A DNA stretch of 22,891 nt from a virus (Duplodnaviria; Heunggongvirae; Uroviricota; Caudoviricetes). Under the pieces are notes generated by a model. That model did no database searches. It was not told the DNA's origin and worked only from the letters and a program-made list of their open reading frames with translations. The DNA lies in IMG/VR virus record IMGVR_UViG_2713896907_000001, positions 1-22,891 of that record, one strand, 5' to 3'. Of the stretch, positions 1 through 8,274 are shown in pieces. How positions within the stretch are numbered: position 1 is the first letter of the stretch; every line of letters starts with the position of its first letter. The position numbers and the translations under genes are program-made.

Positions 1-502
1 TCATCACAGCCCAGTCAGTTTCTCCTGGATGATTTGCATAGAATTGCTCAGGTGTAACAAATTGAGATTTGTCTGTTAAATCATGCAATACCTCATGAAG
101 ATTCATACCAAGATCTGTTCCAACAAGTTCAGAACCAGAGTTAGAGGATAGTTCTTGTTTGAATCTGTCAGGCTCATACTTCAACACATTAGGAAAATAA
201 AACTGCCGCGCTCCATATGCATCATAAACGGCCATAGAATGGCCTTGCACAGTTACGAATTTGGCAATCTGTCCGTTATATACCGGGTAACCAGCAGCGT
301 TAATGATGATTGGTTGCGAAACAGGAACGTGAGAGCCGTCTTCGTTCTCCACATAAACCTGAATCTGGTTTTCAGGATTTACCGGGTCAGTGTCAATTTT
401 ACCGATATAAATTTTGCCATTAGCTACGGCTTTAAAAGAACGAGCCATAGTGAAGAGTTGCGAAGGCATCGATACGATCACATTGGCTGTAATGTCTGTC
501 AT
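1..502 (-). CDS. Tailspike protein, N-terminal head-binding domain (partial; gene continues past the left edge of the window)
   Basis: Not in the ORF track because no stop lies in the window. Manual minus-strand translation from ATG at 502..500 gives [97 protein letters not shown]..., closely matching the remembered P22 tailspike N-terminus ([11 protein letters not shown]...[22 protein letters not shown]...[10 protein letters not shown]...[15 protein letters not shown]). GGAG Shine-Dalgarno upstream. Confidence 0.85.
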
Positions 503-634
503 TTAATTTGCTCCAGATACAAGGAATCGCCGCAGCATGGCTACGGTTGATGTTTGTTGCATACCGAAATGGTACGATTGTTGATTTGTACAGTAGGTTT
601 TACGATGCCATTCCACCCATTTGGTGAGGCATTG

Positions 635-892
635 ATGATGTACAGCAAATACGATGAGGCGCAGTTCCACTTGAGGCTTACGCACGAGTTGCACGCTAAG
701 ATTAAGCAGCGTGCAAAAATGAATAACAGGTCTATCAATTCCGAAATTGTGGCTACGATGGAAGAATCACTCTCCAAACCATCACCTGTAAGCGGGTATC
801 GTGATGAAGAAGAGAGGTTGGCCTCATTAATCTCGGAGCGAGTAAAAGAAGTTGCGGCTGATATCCTTAGAAAAGAAAAAACCCGCGATTAA
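635..892 (+). CDS. Mnt-like ribbon-helix-helix repressor (paralog A)
   Basis: From ATGATG at 635 (GGTGAGG Shine-Dalgarno upstream): MMYSKYDEAQFHLRLTHELHAKIKQRAKMNNRSINSEIVATMEESLSKPSPVSGYRDEEERLASL.... The NGRS-type RHH core and the C-terminal SKPSPV(S/T)GYR..ERLA segment match remembered P22 Mnt; the N-terminal beta-strand residues differ. Upstream part of the track ORF 554..892 is probably not translated. Confidence 0.7.
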   Translation: MMYSKYDEAQFHLRLTHELHAKIKQRAKMNNRSINSEIVATMEESLSKPSPVSGYRDEEERLASLISERVKEVAADILRKEKTRD

Positions 893-900
893 GCGGGTTT
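875..900 (-). terminator. Intrinsic terminator for the minus-strand arc-ant operon (hairpin also overlaps the 3' end of the plus-strand mnt-like gene)
   Basis: Stem ACCCGC (881-886), 6-nt loop, GCGGGT (893-898); on the minus strand it is followed by a TTTTTTCTTTT run. Lies directly after the stop of ORF 907..1128. Confidence 0.6.
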
Positions 901-906
901 AGCTGG

Positions 907-1128
907 TTAGTTATCAAAAAGTCCGTACGTTTCTTCTTCTTCAGGTGTAAGGGGAAGAATCTCTACTCTATCTATAGATACCTTTTCAATGTACCCATGA
1001 GGTCTACTTAAAATTAAAGCTCTCTCATGCCACAGAACTCCAAGAATGTGATACCTTCCAGCATCGCCTTTTACCCTGGCTCTTCCTTTGATTCTTGGCG
1101 GCATAATGCCATATTTTTTCTTTGCCAT
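907..1128 (-). CDS. Hypothetical 73-aa protein, translationally coupled to the upstream antirepressor-like gene
   Basis: ORF MAKKKYGIMPPRIKGRARVKGDAGRYHILGVLWHERALILSRPHGYIEKVSIDRVEILPLTPEEEETYGLFDN; its ATG overlaps the stop of the preceding gene (TAATG at 1126-1130). No family recognised. Confidence 0.45.
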   Translation of the reverse strand: MAKKKYGIMPPRIKGRARVKGDAGRYHILGVLWHERALILSRPHGYIEKVSIDRVEILPLTPEEEETYGLFDN

Positions 1129-1853
1129 TATGCAACATTACTCCCATGAATCAGGTGTTGTAGTGCTTTAACACCTTCCTCATTGTAGCGGAACGCTTCC
1201 ACCTGTTTGCTGGAATGCGCAGATTTATCCAGGAAGAACTTCCCGTACTGCTCAGTTTTGAGGTTGTTTGCGTTAGCAATGCGACCAATCTTGTTGGCCG
1301 TTACTCCAAGCTGCTCTGCAACCTCCCCTGCTGAGTAGTAATGCTCTTCTATTGCCGGAAGAGGTATTGCATTAAAACCAACGAGCGGGTTGATTATACT
1401 TGCTGCCGCTGTCTGCTTTGCCTCCGGCGCAAGATTTGGCATCAGATCGAACAGATTGGTAACAGCTTCAACCGTCATTTTCAATGTTCGCGCTTGACGA
1501 TACTCAACAAGTCCACTCGCTGATTTACCGCTTTTAATGTGCGCTTCCTGCATACTTTCAAGTTTGTCTACAAGTGTTCGGCGAACTGCTTTAGATTCGC
1601 GAGCAGCAACACGAAGCGCCTGCTTGATAGTCATGGAGATAACATCAATGTCAGCCCCGTTTTTCCGACCTACACTTTTTGTGTAGGTCTCGCCTTCCAA
1701 TTCATCCTCAATTTTCTCGATGAATTTGTTGTTACGTACTGATGGCTCTCCACATAACTTGCGAGCTTCATTAACCATCATCAGAAGACTTTGGCTGTCA
1801 ATGGTTTTATCCGTGACAACGGATCCGATGTTTGCTACATTCTTAAAAGTCAT
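1128..1853 (-). CDS. Antirepressor-like protein with C-terminal ANT/KilAC-type DNA-binding region (ant2)
   Basis: Track ORF 1128..1940 begins at a non-ATG codon; the likely start is ATG at 1853 (MTFKNVANIGSV...) preceded by an AAGGAA Shine-Dalgarno. C-terminal segment YYSAGEVAEQLGVTANKIGRIANANNLKTEQYGKFFLDKSAHSSKQVEAFRYNEEGVKAL looks like the helix-turn-helix part of phage antirepressor C-terminal domains. Confidence 0.55.
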   Translation of the reverse strand: MTFKNVANIGSVVTDKTIDSQSLLMMVNEARKLCGEPSVRNNKFIEKIEDELEGETYTKSVGRKNGADIDVISMTIKQALRVAARESKAVRRTLVDKLESMQEAHIKSGKSASGLVEYRQARTLKMTVEAVTNLFDLMPNLAPEAKQTAAASIINPLVGFNAIPLPAIEEHYYSAGEVAEQLGVTANKIGRIANANNLKTEQYGKFFLDKSAHSSKQVEAFRYNEEGVKALQHLIHGSNVA

Positions 1854-1891
1854 TAGGCATTCCTTATGTGGTAGTAAGTGTGTGACATAGG

Positions 1892-1922
1892 CCGCCAGCA
1901 GCACACTGGCGGTTTTCTTTTG
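1892..1922 (+). terminator. Plus-strand intrinsic terminator antisense to the ant1-ant2 junction (candidate end of a sar-like antisense RNA)
   Basis: Perfect 7-bp stem CCGCCAG (1892-1898), 7-nt loop, CTGGCGG (1906-1912), followed on the plus strand by TTTTCTTTTG. No credible plus-strand protein gene ends here. Confidence 0.55.
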
Positions 1923-1940
1923 CGCCGTCCTGTGCACCAA

Positions 1941-2567
1941 TCAATGAATCCATTCCTCGCCGCGAAGTTTTGCCAGCATTGGCTGAGCGTTCTTTACGAC
2001 AAAATTGTTGGTATCAAGATTCTTCATTTCACGAAGAAGTGATTTCTTGGTTTCTTCTGACATGTAGCGAGTCTCATATGCAATATCGTAAATCCTTCCT
2101 GAAAGCTCAGAACCAATTTGCTTCATTCCTGGGTAGATGTGTTTGCACATTTGTTGACTCTTCTCCATCCACAATTGTAAGTAGCAGAGATTAACCAGCT
2201 CTTCGTCAGTGAACTGTTTTGCAATCGGTGAGCATTCTGTCTGCCGATCCAAAATATCCAGCACCCAGCGGCGGAACTCTTTGGCTACCGGAGTGCGAGC
2301 AAACATCGCGATTAGGTGGGCACCGCGTAGTGAGAAAACTCGCACTTTTTTGCGATAATTTCCTGAGGTACTCACTTCGAGTACCTGAGTCATTCCGGCG
2401 CTAAACTCATCGCTATACTTGTTATAAATCATTGTTACTGCACGACTATTTGCGTATTTAAGTGCAGATGCAATATTAGATGATGTAAACCAAACACCAT
2501 GCATATCACGGGTGGGCACCAACTCAACTCCGTGGAAGTTGTAATCTGATTTTGCTACAATATTCAT
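1941..2567 (-). CDS. Antirepressor-like protein, N-terminal (BRO-N/Ant-N type) domain (ant1)
   Basis: Track ORF 1941..2651 would overlap arc; the likely start is ATG at 2567 (MNIVAKSDYNFHGVELVPTRDMHGVWFTSSNIASALKYANSRAVTMIYNKYSDEF...) with an AAGGAAA Shine-Dalgarno. It sits directly downstream of the Arc-like gene, as ant does in the P22 immI region. Confidence 0.55.
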   Translation of the reverse strand: MNIVAKSDYNFHGVELVPTRDMHGVWFTSSNIASALKYANSRAVTMIYNKYSDEFSAGMTQVLEVSTSGNYRKKVRVFSLRGAHLIAMFARTPVAKEFRRWVLDILDRQTECSPIAKQFTDEELVNLCYLQLWMEKSQQMCKHIYPGMKQIGSELSGRIYDIAYETRYMSEETKKSLLREMKNLDTNNFVVKNAQPMLAKLRGEEWIH

Positions 2568-2601
2568 GTTAGTTTCCTTGCATACGGTTACTGACATAGA
2601 G

Positions 2602-2645
2602 GCCCGGTTTGTGTTCGCGCACTGCCGGGCTTCACTATTTTTATT
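2602..2645 (+). terminator. Plus-strand hairpin plus U-rich tract in the arc-ant1 intergenic region (candidate sar-like terminator)
   Basis: GCCCGG (2602-2607) pairs with CCGGGC (2625-2630), with an inner GTG/CAC stem; followed by TTCACTATTTTTATT. Position matches where P22 sar RNA terminates, at the 3' end of arc. Confidence 0.4.
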
Positions 2646-2814
2646 GGGCATTATCTCTTTCCTCTCTCAGGCTTTTAGCCAGTCGCTGCACAATCGCAGA
2701 GTTGATAGAAATTCCATCCATTTCAGCAACACGTCTAATCTCCTCCTTCATTCGCGCTGGCAAACGAAGCTGGAAACTTTGACTTTTACGACCTGTGTAA
2801 AGCACATCTTTCAT
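2641..2814 (-). CDS. arc: Arc-like ribbon-helix-helix repressor
   Basis: From ATG at 2814 (GGGAGG Shine-Dalgarno 7 nt upstream): MKDVLYTGRKSQSFQLRLPARMKEEIRRVAEMDGISINSAIVQRLAKSLREERDNAQ. RHH pattern resembles remembered P22 Arc (PQFNLRWPREVLDLVRKVAEENGRSVNSEIYQRV); divergent from an Mnt-like gene and upstream of ant-like genes. Confidence 0.7.
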   Translation of the reverse strand: MKDVLYTGRKSQSFQLRLPARMKEEIRRVAEMDGISINSAIVQRLAKSLREERDNAQ

Positions 2815-2841
2815 AAGTAATCCTCCCACAATGATACCAAC

Positions 2842-2857
2842 TTGGTTCTAGAACCAA
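2842..2857. promoter_or_regulatory. Perfect 16-bp palindrome TTGGTTCTAGAACCAA in the divergent arc/mnt control region (candidate operator)
   Basis: The sequence at 2842-2857 equals its own reverse complement. It lies in the 96-bp intergenic region between the divergently transcribed Arc-like and Mnt-like genes. A related half-site AAGTTGGT occurs at 2883-2890. Confidence 0.6.
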
Positions 2858-2925
2858 TTTAACACCATTTATTTTGATGTCAAGTTGGTGCTATTGTTTA
2901 GCGAACATCTTTACGTTGAGGTCAT

Positions 2926-3246
2926 ATGAGCAAGTTCCCTAGTCATGAAATGGATAGGTTCAATATCAGGCTTCCTGCAGGAATGCGGGATGCTATAGCT
3001 GAACGAGCAAAACGTAACGGCAGATCAATGAACTCAGAGATTGTTCAGATACTGGAAGATGCCTTGAATGCAGAAAATACACTCGGGGAAATAGCAGATA
3101 AAATCAACAGCGTCTCGGTTCCGCTAAATGTTGATGCGCTAGTTCAACTTCAAGCCCAGGTTATCGCCATGCAAAAAGAAATACAGGAAAAGTTCAGAGA
3201 GCAGAACGAAAAGTTGAGAGAACTGCTAAACAAAAAACCCACCTGA
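2926..3246 (+). CDS. Mnt/Arc-family ribbon-helix-helix repressor (paralog B, in the canonical mnt position)
   Basis: MSKFPSHEMDRFNIRLPAGMRDAIAERAKRNGRSMNSEIVQILEDALNAENTLGEIADKINSV... has the RHH core (FNIRLP ... NGRSMNSEIVQ) followed by a coiled-coil-like C-terminus. Divergent from arc, as mnt is in P22 immI. Confidence 0.7.
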   Translation: MSKFPSHEMDRFNIRLPAGMRDAIAERAKRNGRSMNSEIVQILEDALNAENTLGEIADKINSVSVPLNVDALVQLQAQVIAMQKEIQEKFREQNEKLRELLNKKPT

Positions 3247-3271
3247 AGGTGGGTTAATTTTTGCCTTTTTT
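3231..3271. terminator. Bidirectional intrinsic terminator
   Basis: Stem AACCCACC (3236-3243), loop TGAA, GGTGGGTT (3248-3255). Flanked by an A-run upstream and TTTTTGCCTTTTTT downstream, so a U-tract follows the hairpin on either strand. Separates the immI genes from the upstream moron cluster and late operon. Confidence 0.65.
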
Positions 3272-3345
3272 GGACCATATTGACTACTTATAAAATGAGA
3301 TCAATATTTAATCGCCCAATAACGGGTATATGTTGAGGTATATCA

Positions 3346-3524
3346 TGGCGAAAAAACCAGGTGAAAACACAGGAAAAAACGGCGGAATATACCAAGAAGT
3401 TGGCCCACGCGGCGGTAAGAAAGACAATTTTGCAACCGTCAAGGACAACGAAAGGCTTCCACCAACAACAAAGCCAGGTCATGGCTGGGTATTGGATAAG
3501 CGAACTCCAGACAGCAAAAAGTAA
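3346..3524 (+). CDS. YjzC-like small protein
   Basis: From ATG at 3346 (GAGGT Shine-Dalgarno): MAKKPGENTGKNGGIYQEVGPRGGKKDNFATVKDNERLPPTTKPGHGWVLDKRTPDSKK. The KPGE..G.Y.EVG..G and P.T...H.W pattern resembles the YjzC-like family as I remember it. Has its own upstream region after the bidirectional terminator. Confidence 0.55.
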
Positions 3525-3537
3525 TAATCAAGCCGGG

Positions 3538-3903
3538 TCACTCCGGCTTTTTGATATGTCGCTCGCAGAACTCAACAAGCCTGCTCATTAAGTAGCAGTA
3601 AGTCTCGTTGGCTCTTCCTGGTTCAACATCAACACCTACCCTTGAGCAGATATCGAATGCCATGTGAGCGCACTCATGGGCAATAGTAGATAGTTTGCCA
3701 TTGAACACGCCTATCACATGCAAAACACCATTCTCGCTACTCATTGTATGAGACGCTCCGTTGGCGTCCGAGTCATGCACGTCAACGCCAAGTTTTTGAT
3801 GCAGGCGTTGCCATTCTGGAAAGTCTCTACAAAACACAATTGTACCGCTCTCAAAGAGCGGAACGAGCATCTTTGGTACGTTTCCAATGTTAACTTTTTT
3901 CAT
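3538..3903 (-). CDS. Small HExxH zincin-like protein (possible minimal ImmA/IrrE- or SprT-like metallopeptidase fold)
   Basis: From ATG at 3903: MKKVNIGNVPKMLVPLFESGTIVFCRDFPEWQRLHQKLGVDVHDSDANGASHTMSSENGVLHVIGVFNGKLSTIAHECAHMAFDICSRVGVDVEPGRANETYCYLMSRLVEFCERHIKKPE. HECAH motif, with a Glu 17 residues downstream and an ANETYCYLM segment reminiscent of the ImmA/IrrE E..AN.FA..LL motif. Confidence 0.5.
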   Translation of the reverse strand: MKKVNIGNVPKMLVPLFESGTIVFCRDFPEWQRLHQKLGVDVHDSDANGASHTMSSENGVLHVIGVFNGKLSTIAHECAHMAFDICSRVGVDVEPGRANETYCYLMSRLVEFCERHIKKPE

Positions 3904-3933
3904 GGTATCCTGCACAAAACTAAGGAGGTTGGT

Positions 3934-4323
3934 GTGAAGCGATTTCTTGCTGCTATGTTCTTATTCATATCTTTTGAGGCTACAGCAGAGTGCTGGGTCG
4001 TTGGAGATATGCGCGGAATAAGCTATTCAGAACGAAATAATTTCCATCCGGAAGAAGATGGTTTTAGTGGAACATTCATCATTAAGACAAGCGGTGAAGA
4101 TGCCAGCATCACATATTCTGGGACAGATGCGGGCGGCATGGCTTACAAAGCATTGTCTAAAAACTCCATCATAGGAATCGGCGCGAATGGCGAAACTCAA
4201 CGCGTTATCGACTCATGGGTAATACATCCTACTGGAACAGTTTTAATGTCAAAAACCATTTCCGGTTATGGAAATATGGATTCAACCAAAGCTTTTGTTG
4301 GAAAAGTAAAAAGAAAATGTTAG
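3934..4323 (+). CDS. Hypothetical exported protein with N-terminal signal peptide
   Basis: The track ORF 3718..4323 is antisense to the HExxH gene over its 5' half. The likely start is GTG at 3934, 5 nt after an AAGGAGG Shine-Dalgarno (3922-3928). Product MKRFLAAMFLFISFEATAECWVVGDMRG... has a basic n-region, hydrophobic core and ATA-E cleavage-like site; no lipobox. Confidence 0.5.
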   Translation: MKRFLAAMFLFISFEATAECWVVGDMRGISYSERNNFHPEEDGFSGTFIIKTSGEDASITYSGTDAGGMAYKALSKNSIIGIGANGETQRVIDSWVIHPTGTVLMSKTISGYGNMDSTKAFVGKVKRKC

Positions 4324-4347
4324 CGATTGAATCCAATTTCCCATACG

Positions 4348-6222
4348 TTACTGCTGTGTTGCCTCAGTAGCAAACAGCGGTCTGATGGCATTCGCAGCGT
4401 TATTTAGCGCTCTTTCATAGGCTGGTGTTCCTGCTTTGGTGTTTGCCAAACGAAGAAGCATATTCCTTGCGGCTTTGGACTCATACAAACGCATCATTGC
4501 ACCAAAGCCAGCCTCAAGCCCCATTGATACTCCAAGAGTCGCAGTTGCGCCAATCGTCCTTATCCTGTTGGCTTGTGATTGCCCCGTCTGAGTTACTACA
4601 TTTGCGGTGTCTGACCTTGCTGTTTGCTGTAGAACTTCATGAAGAGCATCAAGCTCTTTCATGTGCTTTCCAGAAAAAATAGTGTTGTAAATTTCACCGC
4701 CTGACTGAGATTTAAGCTTATTAACTTCAGTGATGAACTTGGCTGGAGAGTCACCGGCCTTTTCCGCTATTTTGCTGACGTAAGCTGCACGCATAGCATC
4801 TTTCCCTTTATCATCCAATGCGCTCCAGATTCGTTTCACGTCAGATGGCTTTCTGCTTAATACAACGGTATTTATAAGTTCAGGACTGGCTTCACTGCTT
4901 GCCTTGTTGAGCTTGTTAGCAATGTTTTTATTAAGCACCTTATTATAAACGTTTGCATAATCGGAGTTTGCTTTAAGGTATTTTGCTGCGTCTGATGCAC
5001 CGAGGTTTTTTGCAACTGCGCTACGAAGATCTTTTGACATTGCATTCTCTACCATATTGGTAGCTGCTTTTGCCTGGTTGGGGAAGACCATAGCATCTCC
5101 CTGAACATTGGATCTAAATGCTGTTCTGTGCTGACGCAAGAGATCAAACGTAACATCCAAATCAGTTGCAGGGTTTGCTAATTCTTCACGTAGGTTACGC
5201 AAGGATGTAAGCAGGCTTTGATTGGCAGACGTCCCAAGCCGTTCCTGTCTTGCGATCGCTGTATTCAGAGCATTCATGGTATTTGTGGTATCAACTGCGG
5301 CATTACCCATTTTATTGGTGACGTCATTGATAACAGCGCCAGCGGCATCCTTCCGTCCCCTTAACGTGGTGGTCAGAGATTTCACCACATCATCAGGGTT
5401 GTACTCACCAAAACGGTCAAAATAATTGCTTACCAGCTTACTACGCGTTGCATATTGCTCCGCTCGCTTTGAGCCTGTCCCGAGCAAAGCCCCCTCAGCA
5501 TCCTGAGTAAGTCCGCGAGTGAAAGCATTTTTCGGCGGGATAACATCAGATGTCATTGGTGTCACGCCCATCGATTCTGATGTGGCAATTTTCTTCGCCA
5601 CTTCTGGCGCAATATCACCTTTTATAGCCGTTATTCCACGCCCTATTCCCTTTGCTGCTGCGGAAAGAACACCCTGAGCGGCAAGGTTAACTCCGGCATT
5701 TTTAGCTGCATTTTGTGCGAAATCACCTTTCTGATTTGCGGCCTCTGCCAGTGATCCAATAGCCATGCTTCCTGCCGTTCCAACTCCTGGAACTAAATAC
5801 CCGCCAATTGTTTCTCCAGCTTGAGCGTAGGGGTCTGTCGGTCTGTCTACTGGACGATAGACATCATCCAATACTTTTGGCCCACCAAGCCCCTGACTGA
5901 TTGCATTAATCAGACTTGCGCCACCCTGCAATACGTCAAATGGTATGTTTACCAGACCACGACCAGCCTGTTCTGCAATTTGCCCTGCACTTTGACCACC
6001 AGTGAGCCAATCGCCAGCTTGTTGCATCAATGATGGTTCTTCTTTCTGCTGCTGAGGCGGAGGGTATGCTGCATAAAACTGATCTCTTGCTTCAGCCCAT
6101 TTGTCACCAGCCTTAGGGGCAACAACCTCATCAAAATATTGCGCTTGAGCCTGTGCTTTCTGTTCTTCAGTTAACGCCTGATACTGTGGAGAAGCGATAA
6201 CATCTTTCCATGCTTTAGCCAT
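4348..6222 (-). CDS. Ejection (injection) protein, P22 gp16-like
   Basis: 624-aa ORF in the gp16 position, last of the 14-7-20-16 ejection block; size close to P22 gp16; Ala/Gly-rich low-complexity internal region typical of these proteins. Confidence 0.75.
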
Positions 6223-7571: not shown

Positions 7572-7581
7572 TGATTACCCC

Positions 7582-8274
7582 TTAAAACAACGAGCCAAGC
7601 AGACCAAGACCAGCACCGATACCAGCACCCCACGGAGTTGATAGCTCGAGAGCACTGGCTATGCCACCACCCAAAAGCGCACCGGATGCAGCACCACTAA
7701 CCCCCTGCTGCAATGCTGACGGTCGGTTGGCGTTTGCCGCAGCCAGCGCCGCGCTTTGCTGTGAAATCTGACTCATGTTGTTGGCATATGTTTGCCCGGC
7801 GTTTGCCTGCCCCTGAAGAGCGCCAAGACCGATATTTGCCAGGTTGTTGTAATTGTTCATTTGTCCAGATAGCCATTGCTGACCAAGCGTTGGTGCGATT
7901 GTTGCTAACTGATTACTGGTTGCGGTGGAACCCAATCCACCTGTTGCTTCCGCTGCAGCCAGACTCTGATAGCGAGCCTGACCAGCAAGATCTTTGTACT
8001 GCTGAGAGTTGTAATACTGGTTAAGTGCCTGACCTTGCCCTTCCAGAGACGATAAGTTCTCGAGGCTGCCGAGATACTTATCAGCCAGAGGAGTAAACGG
8101 CTTCAGGTTGTTCATGATGGTGTTGAACTGCTTATTTTGCAGGTCTGCGGCATACTTCTGAGCTTCTGCGGCATACTTTGCACTTTTATCAGAACTGCCA
8201 CCTTTCCCGCCTTTTTCAGGGCAATAAGGTTCCTCGCCGCGCAGTTTTCTGCCCAGTTTAAATGCATATAACAT
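7582..8274 (-). CDS. Ejection protein, P22 gp7-like
   Basis: 230-aa ORF (MLYAFKLGRKLRGEEPYCPEKGGKGG...) with an Ala/Gly/Gln-rich C-terminal region; position after the gp14-like gene. Confidence 0.7.
   Translation of the reverse strand: MLYAFKLGRKLRGEEPYCPEKGGKGGSSDKSAKYAAEAQKYAADLQNKQFNTIMNNLKPFTPLADKYLGSLENLSSLEGQGQALNQYYNSQQYKDLAGQARYQSLAAAEATGGLGSTATSNQLATIAPTLGQQWLSGQMNNYNNLANIGLGALQGQANAGQTYANNMSQISQQSAALAAANANRPSALQQGVSGAASGALLGGGIASALELSTPWGAGIGAGLGLLGSLF

Follow-up and report, generated by a model that had tools for sequence, protein, structure and literature searches.

An mnt Homologue Divergent from the Tailspike Gene of a P22-Like Prophage and Its Predicted Operator

Introduction

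What does an Mnt-like repressor gene do when it stands back to back with the tailspike gene, with neither arc nor ant between the two? This question is raised by a DNA stretch of 22,891 nucleotides (IMG/VR record IMGVR_UViG_2713896907_000001, positions 1 to 22,891), hereafter the window. It comes from a P22-like (Lederbergvirus) prophage, of which it covers the late genes, all on the minus strand, and immI. The gene in question, here called mnt2 (635-892, plus strand), and the tailspike gene, of which the window holds the N-terminal part (1-502, minus strand), have divergent starts and share a spacer of 132 bp (503-634). The original prediction, made from the letters of the window, had given these same positions, which agree with those of the open reading frame (ORF) and of the tailspike ATG. 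It took mnt2 for a second paralog beside the Mnt-like gene in the canonical position (2926-3246, plus strand; here mnt1), proposed that it could control tailspike expression or convergent transcription into the antirepressor (ant) operon, and noted that this is not familiar from P22. We followed up these proposals by computation, and we consider it fairly probable that mnt2 is a self-contained, prophage-expressed "orphan" Mnt module with a different DNA specificity.

The mnt2 Gene and Its Product

The translation of 635-892 (MMYSKYDEAQFHLRLTHELHAKIKQRAKMNNRSINSEIVATMEESLSKPSPVSGYRDEEERLASLISERVKEVAADILRKEKTRD) has 85 amino acids, or 84 when counted from ATG638, with QFHLRL as its recognition strand. 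A ribbon-helix-helix domain was recognized by the Pfam family Arc (PF03869; E-value 4e-15, 55.8 bits for a cut-off of 20.4), and BLASTP aligned residues 7-79 of Mnt2 with residues 4-76 of P22 Mnt without gaps, at 47% identity over 73 amino acids; this alignment spans the SKPSPVxGYR linker plus the C-terminal region. The closest solved relative was PDB entry 1mnt (phmmer 3e-16; residues 7-79 of Mnt2 against 3-75 of 1mnt_A). The AlphaFold2 model (mean predicted local distance difference test score, pLDDT, of 79) showed helices at residues 17-29, 34-47, and 58-83, the last of which is a single long helix with a pLDDT of 88-92. Its top fold matches were Arc and AmrZ, with target-normalized template modeling (TM) scores of 0.72-0.81 and weak E-values. 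No match of Mnt2 to the Pfam model of the C-terminal tetramerization domain (Repressor_Mnt, PF11423) was obtained even at an E-value of 10; for comparison, this model scored 1.6e-20 with P22 Mnt, 3.3e-14 with the Sf101 allele, whose N-domain is that of Mnt2, and 0.034 with phage L. Because the C-terminal helix falls short of the Repressor_Mnt model, oligomerization of Mnt2 is something that we only infer.

When both proteins of the window were aligned to P22 Mnt, as the original prediction had suggested, 635-892 was colinear over its full length and 2926-3246 was not. The product of mnt1 (Pfam Arc, 1.6e-20) aligned over 37 amino acids only, all of them in the ribbon-helix-helix domain; its N-domain is of the Arc type, and its C-terminus (residues 50-106) is longer and has no similarity to Mnt. 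Since 2926-3246 shares just the DNA-binding domain with Mnt, the alignments identify 635-892 as the true, full-length mnt homologue. Therefore, the prediction of an Mnt-like repressor gene at 635-892, with the C-terminal region that most resembles P22 Mnt, was borne out by Pfam, BLASTP, and the 1mnt match, but its label of "second paralog" is backwards, the gene at 2926 being an Arc-family repressor with an unrelated C-terminus. In related loci, mnt1 occurs with at least two N-terminal variants, each accompanied by a different intergenic palindrome (L010 type versus window type).

The ratio of nonsynonymous to synonymous substitution rates (dN/dS) in the Mnt2 N-domain was 0.01-0.06, with synonymous sites near saturation, and therefore the DNA-binding function of Mnt2 appears to have been maintained. 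Taking into account this purifying selection and the fact that over 80 viral contigs and 64 of 5,426 complete Escherichia coli genomes carry the gene, mnt2 is, as far as comparative sequence evidence goes, much more than a chance ORF. The position of its start was also considered, given that both the NCBI prokaryotic genome annotation of E. coli SBF22 and the Sf101 record begin the product at the codon equivalent to ATG605, which yields 95-97 amino acids. This ATG lies inside the conserved -10 hexamer of the promoter described below (TACGATG), and relatives have a stop codon (L060 type) or a frameshift (L054) after it. Meanwhile, ATG638 is the start kept by all relatives, and a Shine-Dalgarno GAGG (626-629) precedes ATG635 by 5 nt and ATG638 by 8 nt. 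Because ATG605 falls within the -10 and the extension is broken in relatives, a start at 635/638 is supported and the annotated N-terminal extension is probably wrong.

Predicted Operator and Promoter in the Spacer

A palindromic operator of about 17 bp that abuts the -35 of its own promoter is a feature of the Mnt family, and it was present in the spacer. The predicted operator of Mnt2, O1 (CATACCGAAATGGTACG, 560-576; core TACC-N5-GGTA, 562-574), ends one base before the -35 and its core ends three bases before it. The promoter, Pmnt2 (578-606, plus strand), consists of the -35 TTGTTG (578-583), a spacing of 17 nt and the -10 TACGAT (601-606), with a predicted start at about 613; after the -10, a leader of about 28 nt carrying GAGG leads to the ATG, and GAGGCAT is kept in relatives. 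When the spacer was aligned with the mnt-arc spacer of P22, the same plan was observed: O1 stands in the register of Omnt relative to the -35 ATTG(T/A)G, a register also found in phage L, the distance from operator to ATG is 66 nt in the window against 67 nt in P22, and Pmnt2 is homologous to P22 Pmnt (TTGAGA-17-TATCAT). The immI regions of P22 and epsilon34 match the window in operator, -35, -10, and start spacing, and in all of them mnt is transcribed against the late operon.

This arrangement is conserved. Among 48 unique upstream sequences, including those of Serratia and Buttiauxella, the TACC and GGTA arms, the A-rich center, and ATTG were invariant or nearly so, and TTTACGATGC of Pmnt2 was invariant. 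A search of genome contigs with the N-domain returned three loci, one of them spurious and the other two from Serratia and Buttiauxella, both of which have the same operator and promoter as the window. By a rough promoter weight matrix, Pmnt2 was the top plus-strand site in 495-660, with a score of 8.4. Pmnt2 is thus supported because it is conserved and not because it is near consensus. The only match in the window to the full 17-bp O1 with up to three mismatches was O1 itself. Considering all of this, O1 is very probably the binding site of Mnt2.

The tailspike-proximal part of the spacer has another identity. Positions 503 to about 563 are an ordinary tailspike leader (503-559, minus strand; Shine-Dalgarno GGAG, complement of 511-514), common to P22-like phages that have no mnt at this place; in P22-type loci it comes after the ant terminator, and in mnt2-type loci after O1. 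Just upstream of the ribosome-binding site it contains a stem-loop (530-546; minus-strand RNA CCGUAGC-CAU-GCUGCGG), and the fold has an energy of -18.8 kcal/mol (z -2.35). The stem-loop is annotated as a terminator in the records of epsilon34, HK620, and Emek, and it has no U-tract; leaders of the Sf101 type have a different hairpin there. Within the mnt2 leader, an inverted repeat (CACC-CATTT-GGTG, 614-626) was considered as a second operator or an RNA hairpin, since related leaders also carry inverted repeats, though different ones, at its place. It was rejected, given that its fold was no better than that of shuffled sequences (z 0.26) and that RNAalifold retained only three outer pairs.

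We also looked for O1 sites elsewhere. The window holds one other exact TACC-N5-GGTA core (CTACCATATTGGTAG, 5049-5063), which lies inside gene 16, is kept in several gp16 alleles, and is probably due to chance or coding constraint. An exact scan of IMG/VR for CATACCNAAAYGGTAC matched at least 120 stretches; among the matches listed, 52 were at mnt2 genes and 74 were in unrelated phages of varied G+C at about the rate expected by chance, with no arc or ant homologue near these 74. One unrelated phage family (G+C of about 0.54) repeats a promoter-like element, TATATA-CATACCGAAACGGTAC, before two or three small genes just ahead of the terminase gene (L105, L131, L142, L166, L182, and L100, which has it twice, near 7579-8109, at a distance of 515 bp). 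Here CATACCGAAACGGTAC is identical to the O1 core, yet no Mnt-like gene is nearby, and the family was judged unrelated.

Covariation of Recognition Strand and Operator

The strand that reads the DNA and the operator change together among the Mnt proteins compared. Three classes were distinguished: HFNFRM in P22 and epsilon34, with the palindrome AGGTCCAC.GTGGACCT; QFNLRL in phages L, ST160, and Gally, with AGACCAC.GTGGTCT; and QFHLRL in the window, with CATACC.AAAYGGTAC. In all three the operator precedes the -35 ATTG(T/A)G by only a base or two. The original prediction had noted the altered strand and expected from it a different operator, and both the covariation of the three classes and the natural chimeras described below agree with it.

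In loci L073 and L076-L079, the L-type strand and operator are combined with a C-terminus of the window type, so operator and C-terminal domain are not tied to each other. Two further natural chimeras, P0042 (L299, 1420-1500) and P0044 (L300, 1420-1500), carry the L-type arm and beta-strand on helices of the window type, and they sit behind an L-type operator, AGGACCACGGTGGTCT. As judged by these natural combinations, specificity goes with roughly the first 20 residues, and the operator sequence tracks the N-terminal arm and the beta-strand and not the rest of Mnt. This is reportedly the behavior to be expected from the classic swap experiments between Arc and Mnt. We take the base-contacting residues of P22 Mnt to be Arg2, His6, Asn8, and Arg10, three of which differ in Mnt2; the contacts of His6, Asn8, and Arg10 are said to come from the work of Youderian et al. 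in 1983 and of Knight and Sauer in 1989.

Distribution of mnt beside the Tailspike Gene

The tailspike-divergent position of mnt was found in many genomes. Among GenBank phages (megablast and tblastn) it is present in JEP4, whose copy is 98.8% identical and annotated "regulatory protein mnt," and in VSe13, Gally, Sf101, and IME10; phages L, ST64T, ST104, ST160, and SE1 and Proteus phage Brookers have more distant alleles there. The prophages of E. coli HS, 55989, and SBF22 also have mnt at this place. In all 80 of the IMG/VR loci fetched with Mnt2, the upstream side showed either a P22-type tailspike N-terminus on the opposite strand (tblastn) or the end of the contig, and the distance between tailspike and mnt was about 130 bp in most of them. 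A protein homologue search with the N-domain returned close relatives from Enterobacterales only, named "Arc family DNA-binding protein," and no new context.

The neighbor goes with the strand type. Copies with HFNFRM were beside arc in 76 cases and beside the tailspike gene in none; those with QFHLRL were beside the tailspike gene in 76 of the 83 counted and never beside arc; and those with QFNLRL, the phage L type, were beside the tailspike gene in 9 of 9 and never beside arc, counts that rest on 30, 40, and 7 unique upstream regions and on sets of loci biased to near-identical sequences. This lack of overlap between tailspike-adjacent and arc-adjacent strand types speaks for a lineage that is old and stable and against deletions that recurred in recent times.

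What follows mnt2 on its 3' side is variable: it has either nothing before gene 16 or a kilA-ant cassette under one of three unrelated control modules. The cassette is present in most loci with a near-identical mnt2 and absent from many relatives (Sf101, IME10, L081-L087, phage L). The whole arrangement with three repressors was found in 19 of the 5,426 complete E. coli genomes, including strain 55989. Villafane et al. named the interval between gene 16 and the tailspike gene the "ant moron," described it as highly variable, with mnt only in ST64T and ST104, and drew the HS-1 prophage (PMC2629481), which carries this mnt2. A layout with mnt beside the tailspike gene has thus been described for phages L, ST64T, and ST104 and for the HS-1 prophage (PMC2629481, PMC8022706), although the original prediction did not know it from P22.

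By comparison with the lone mnt of Salmonella phages L, ST64T, ST104, ST160, and SE1, the window has the same order and orientation, with the tailspike gene pointing left, mnt pointing right, and then a two-way terminator. The L-type loci also share the palindrome upstream of the -35 and the absence of arc and ant between mnt and tailspike gene, and they have a similar promoter (-35 ATTGTG, -10 TATGAT). They differ in strand and operator, QFNLRL with AGACCAC-N-GTGGTCT against QFHLRL with CATACC-N5-GGTAC, and in that the window has an antirepressor cassette, an arc-like gene, and mnt1 at 907-3246, in the interval between gene 16 and the tailspike gene. HS-1 and JEP4 share with the window the tailspike gene, mnt2 (96-99% identical), a kilA-like gene, and an opposite-strand ant of the P22AR type; a gene for a helix-turn-helix (C2-like) repressor stands at the head of their ant operon, whereas that of the window has the pair of arc-like gene and mnt1, and HS-1 additionally carries an IS3 insertion. 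In the window, mnt2 is a new specificity allele of a known and widespread arrangement, joined to a separately regulated antirepressor cassette.

Several variants of the locus were also seen. In Klebsiella phage phiKp_30 (L003, 3956-4198) there are only the 65 C-terminal codons of mnt2, 98.5% identical and fused to an unrelated N-terminus; this remnant adjoins a kilA-like gene in a different genomic context. In L010, L016, L019, and JEP4 (L001, 3990-4010), a stub of about 11 nt from a P22-type tailspike start (ATGTCTGTCAT / ATCTGTCAT) remains by the leader and is followed by a different tailspike; L010, L016, and L019 additionally have, after the stub, an ORF which by eye is HNH/AP2-like. These stubs are traces of tailspike replacement at a boundary sequence. 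In other phages the lone mnt is followed by small genes on the same strand, as in Brookers (L215, 2492-3237) and L300 (1501-2348), which include a lipoprotein gene and ORFs of 146 and 41 amino acids. Because of these genes Pmnt may also serve accessory genes, while mnt2 of the window has no downstream cargo of that kind.

Terminator and Antirepressor Cassette

The stop codon of mnt2 is overlapped by a two-way terminator hairpin (AAACCCGC-N6-GCGGGTTT, 879-900), which the terminator scan assigned to the minus strand, with a stem of 8 pairs and TTTTCTTTTCT behind it. Its folds gave -13.8 and -14.1 kcal/mol (z -2.7 and -2.4). The hairpin is strong in the leftward direction, where it ends the ant operon, and its U-tract is weak in the rightward direction; since the mnt2 strand has just UUU, there may be some rightward read-through. 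In phage L, terminators are annotated on both strands at the same place.

Beyond the terminator lies the antirepressor cassette (907-2814, minus strand), assigned from Pfam matches and annotated in JEP4 and E. coli SBF22. It is formed by orf73 (907-1128), a KilA-annotated gene of 241 amino acids (1128-1853), ant (1941-2567), whose product has Bro-N and P22_AR_C domains, and an arc-like gene (2641-2814, Pfam). The region is not "mnt-only" in the window because this complete cassette follows the terminator. The control region of the cassette (2828-2897) holds the ant promoter (TTGACA-16-TAAATT, 2883 to 2856), whose matrix score of 14.4 is the highest in the whole window. A perfect 16-bp palindrome (TTGGTTCTAGAACCAA, 2842-2857) covers the -10/+1 of this promoter and is flanked by a 17-nt inverted repeat (2828-2844 and 2881-2897); there is also a weak O1-like core with one mismatch (TACCAACTTGGTT, 2835-2847). 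In loci with identical Mnt2, three unrelated ant control regions were found. The cassette together with mnt1 (907-3246) is thus independent of mnt2: a strong promoter, palindromes, and two Arc-family repressors belong to it.

In P22, arc and ant are driven by Pant, which is located between mnt and gene 9 and whose start is overlapped by Omnt, whereas the spacer of the window has neither such a promoter nor such genes; unlike in P22, the ant genes of the window are on the 3' side of mnt2 and under other repressors. Rfam detected nothing in 1-6000 beyond a sub-threshold terminator-like match, and no homologue of P22 sar. In particular, the spacer between the arc-like gene and ant (2568-2640) has no sar homologue by Rfam; it does contain an inverted repeat (GCCCGG...CCGGGC) with a T-rich run behind it on the plus strand.

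With respect to the rest of the locus, the tailspike N-terminus (MTDITANV..., ATG at the complement of 500-502) is a head-binding domain of the P22 type. Its start is 94-98% identical at the DNA level to those of epsilon34, CUS-3, and N7, and by tblastn the N-terminus is 48-100% identical to those of related loci, with 72% for P22 gp9. To the right of mnt1 there are genes 93-99% identical to the P22 orf59a and sieA region, then gene 16 and the remaining virion genes.

Possible Function of Mnt2

Considering the features of the spacer, Mnt2 would be made from the prophage, would bind O1, probably as a tetramer like Mnt, and would regulate its own promoter. Binding to O1 with some degree of autoregulation is well supported by analogy with P22 and by the covariation of strand and operator, and on the whole we consider it more likely than not that Mnt2 autoregulates. 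O1 was the only good site found; it is flanked by the last terminator (900-879) on one side and by the ribosome-binding site of the tailspike gene on the other. An effect on leftward transcription into the tailspike gene is therefore what we favor beyond autoregulation, since O1 faces all such transcription. Bound Mnt2 acting as a roadblock, together with head-on firing of Pmnt2, would hinder leftward transcription before it reached the tailspike gene, so that tailspike expression would continue to depend on late transcription that is antiterminated. The genome acted on could be the resident one or that of an incoming relative with the same O1. That Mnt2 affects transcription entering the tailspike gene is possible, and we put it forward tentatively. 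An influence of Mnt and Arc on the late transcription that reaches the tailspike gene has been suggested for P22 (Villafane et al., PMC2629481), and it has been proposed that the lone mnt of phage L "could have acquired another function" (PMC8022706).

A still broader possibility is that the tailspike-adjacent Mnt proteins (QFNLRL and QFHLRL) form an old, selected lineage, and not relics of immI, that gates tailspike transcription and that, on an incoming relative with the same operator, would act as a late-stage superinfection exclusion device; we regard this as rather doubtful. A parallel exists in the BTP1 prophage, where the antisense RNA STnc6030, transcribed against the late operon at the junction of gene 16 and tailspike gene, excludes superinfecting BTP1 (PMC7067206). 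The predicted mnt2 transcript is at the same junction and has the same direction. However, STnc6030 is non-coding and starts inside the tailspike gene, whereas that of mnt2 would include an ORF of 85 codons on which purifying selection acts. In BTP1, mnt is missing from the interval between gene 16 and the tailspike gene, and there is no similarity to the window beyond the tailspike start. On the mnt strand of BTP1 (L298, LT714109; 14023-14177, complement) a perfect TATAAT is followed by GGAGGG and then by a 23-codon hydrophobic ORF (MERDLLNFVFLIFGLVVGKLLFA).

Other explanations have to be weighed against the preceding ones. The original prediction had considered control of the tailspike, which would be direct if the spacer held a divergent pair of promoters and Mnt2 repressed one dedicated to the tailspike gene, much as Pant is repressed by P22 Mnt. 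The geometry is inherited from P22, in which Omnt and the start of the leftward Pant overlap, the equivalent of Pant is less decayed in phage L (TCGGCA-17-TATATC), and the tailspike gene of the BTP1 prophage has several secondary transcription starts (PMC7067206). Nevertheless, a consensus scan of the minus strand of 503-634 showed no promoter-like site, the best minus-strand matrix score in the spacer was 5.3, equal to the background median, compared with 14.4 for the ant promoter of the window and 16.3 for P22 Pant, and the TTGACA-17-TATATT of Pant has decayed to ATGGCA-17-CAAATC, with hexamers that vary among relatives. Given that 503 to about 563 is also the common leader found behind the terminator in phages without mnt, there is no credible leftward promoter and this explanation is extremely unlikely. 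Mnt2 could instead be a second regulator of the resident ant operon, acting either through the core at 2835-2847 or through convergent transcription or antisense RNA from Pmnt2 that passes the weak rightward terminator, convergent transcription being the other proposal of the original prediction. That core has one mismatch and lies at +2 to +14 of the ant promoter, as Omnt lies relative to P22 Pant; the plus-strand U-tract after the 879-900 hairpin is only UUU; and a near-identical mnt2 usually precedes a kilA-ant cassette. But the hairpin limits convergent transcription into the operon, weak as that U-tract is, and cores with one mismatch occur 8 times in the window for 3.2 expected by chance, while the full 17-mer has no second match with up to three mismatches. 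Besides, beside a 100% identical Mnt2 the ant control region can be wholly different and lack the core (the "ATGACATCA" type and the JEP4/HS type with a helix-turn-helix repressor), the core itself is polymorphic (TACC to TGCC in L020 and L024), and many relatives have no ant cassette at all. As regards a maintenance repressor, we found neither arc nor ant between mnt2 and the tailspike gene and no conserved O1 at the resident ant promoter. A role of Mnt2 at the resident ant operon is therefore very unlikely.

The target could also be outside the genome that carries the gene. The Mnt of a P22 prophage represses ant on superinfecting genomes. By analogy, a lone Mnt might confer immunity in trans by silencing antirepressor promoters of the O1 type on incoming phages, which would shield the repressor of the resident prophage from foreign Ant, so that two specificities would cover two types of immI. 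Strong purifying selection on a repressor that lacks a local target calls for a target elsewhere, which speaks for this explanation. Against it, no arc-ant module with a QFHLRL or QFNLRL Mnt or with their operators was seen: all 85 of the 85 such copies with a recognized neighbor were beside the tailspike gene, all 76 of the 76 arc-adjacent copies were of the P22 type, and the exact O1 matches outside mnt2 loci were, among those listed, the chance-rate hits in unrelated phages mentioned above. Because no arc-adjacent Mnt of the Q classes was seen, this immunity would be one without a known target, and we consider it unlikely. The immI region is summarized in PMC2629481 and PMC8022706, and the latter raised for the lone mnt of phage L the possibility of a relic. 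If mnt2 were likewise a decaying relic of immI without present function, the decay of Pant and the truncated copy of phiKp_30 would be explained. Meanwhile, the low dN/dS at near-saturated synonymous sites and the conservation of operator, -35, and -10 from Escherichia phages to those of Serratia, Buttiauxella, and Proteus are contrary to it. A mere relic is hard to reconcile with purifying selection or with so clear a split between the strand types, and we regard it as highly improbable.

Returning to the orphan module with its own operator and promoter, some observations weigh against it. Judged by the consensus, Pmnt2 is a weak promoter: it agrees at 7 of 12 hexamer positions, and its matrix score is at about the 91st percentile of the background. 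The neighbor counts of 76 to 0 overstate the independence of the cases, because near-identical sequences dominate the sets. The module is accessory, since many P22-like phages (Sf6, HK620, CUS-3, and BTP1) make their tailspike without mnt, and the adjacency to the tailspike gene may result from recombination at the conserved leader, a "boundary sequence," and not from function. Finally, the sign of autoregulation is uncertain because P22 Mnt bound at this position reportedly leaves Pmnt unrepressed, a result attributed to Vershon et al. in 1987.

Conclusions

For annotation purposes, the mnt homologue of this region is 635-892 and not 2926-3246. A lone mnt by the tailspike gene is widespread and strongly conserved, has had no assigned function, and now has a candidate site of action at 560-576. 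P22 Mnt and Arc are textbook models of DNA recognition by a beta-sheet, and the natural series of three strands and three operators in one register, with its chimeras, is a ready-made specificity set that could serve such work; to it the window adds the predicted pairing of QFHLRL with CATACC-N5-GGTAC. If the gating of tailspike transcription on incoming relatives were true, Mnt2 would be the protein counterpart of the antisense RNA STnc6030 of BTP1.

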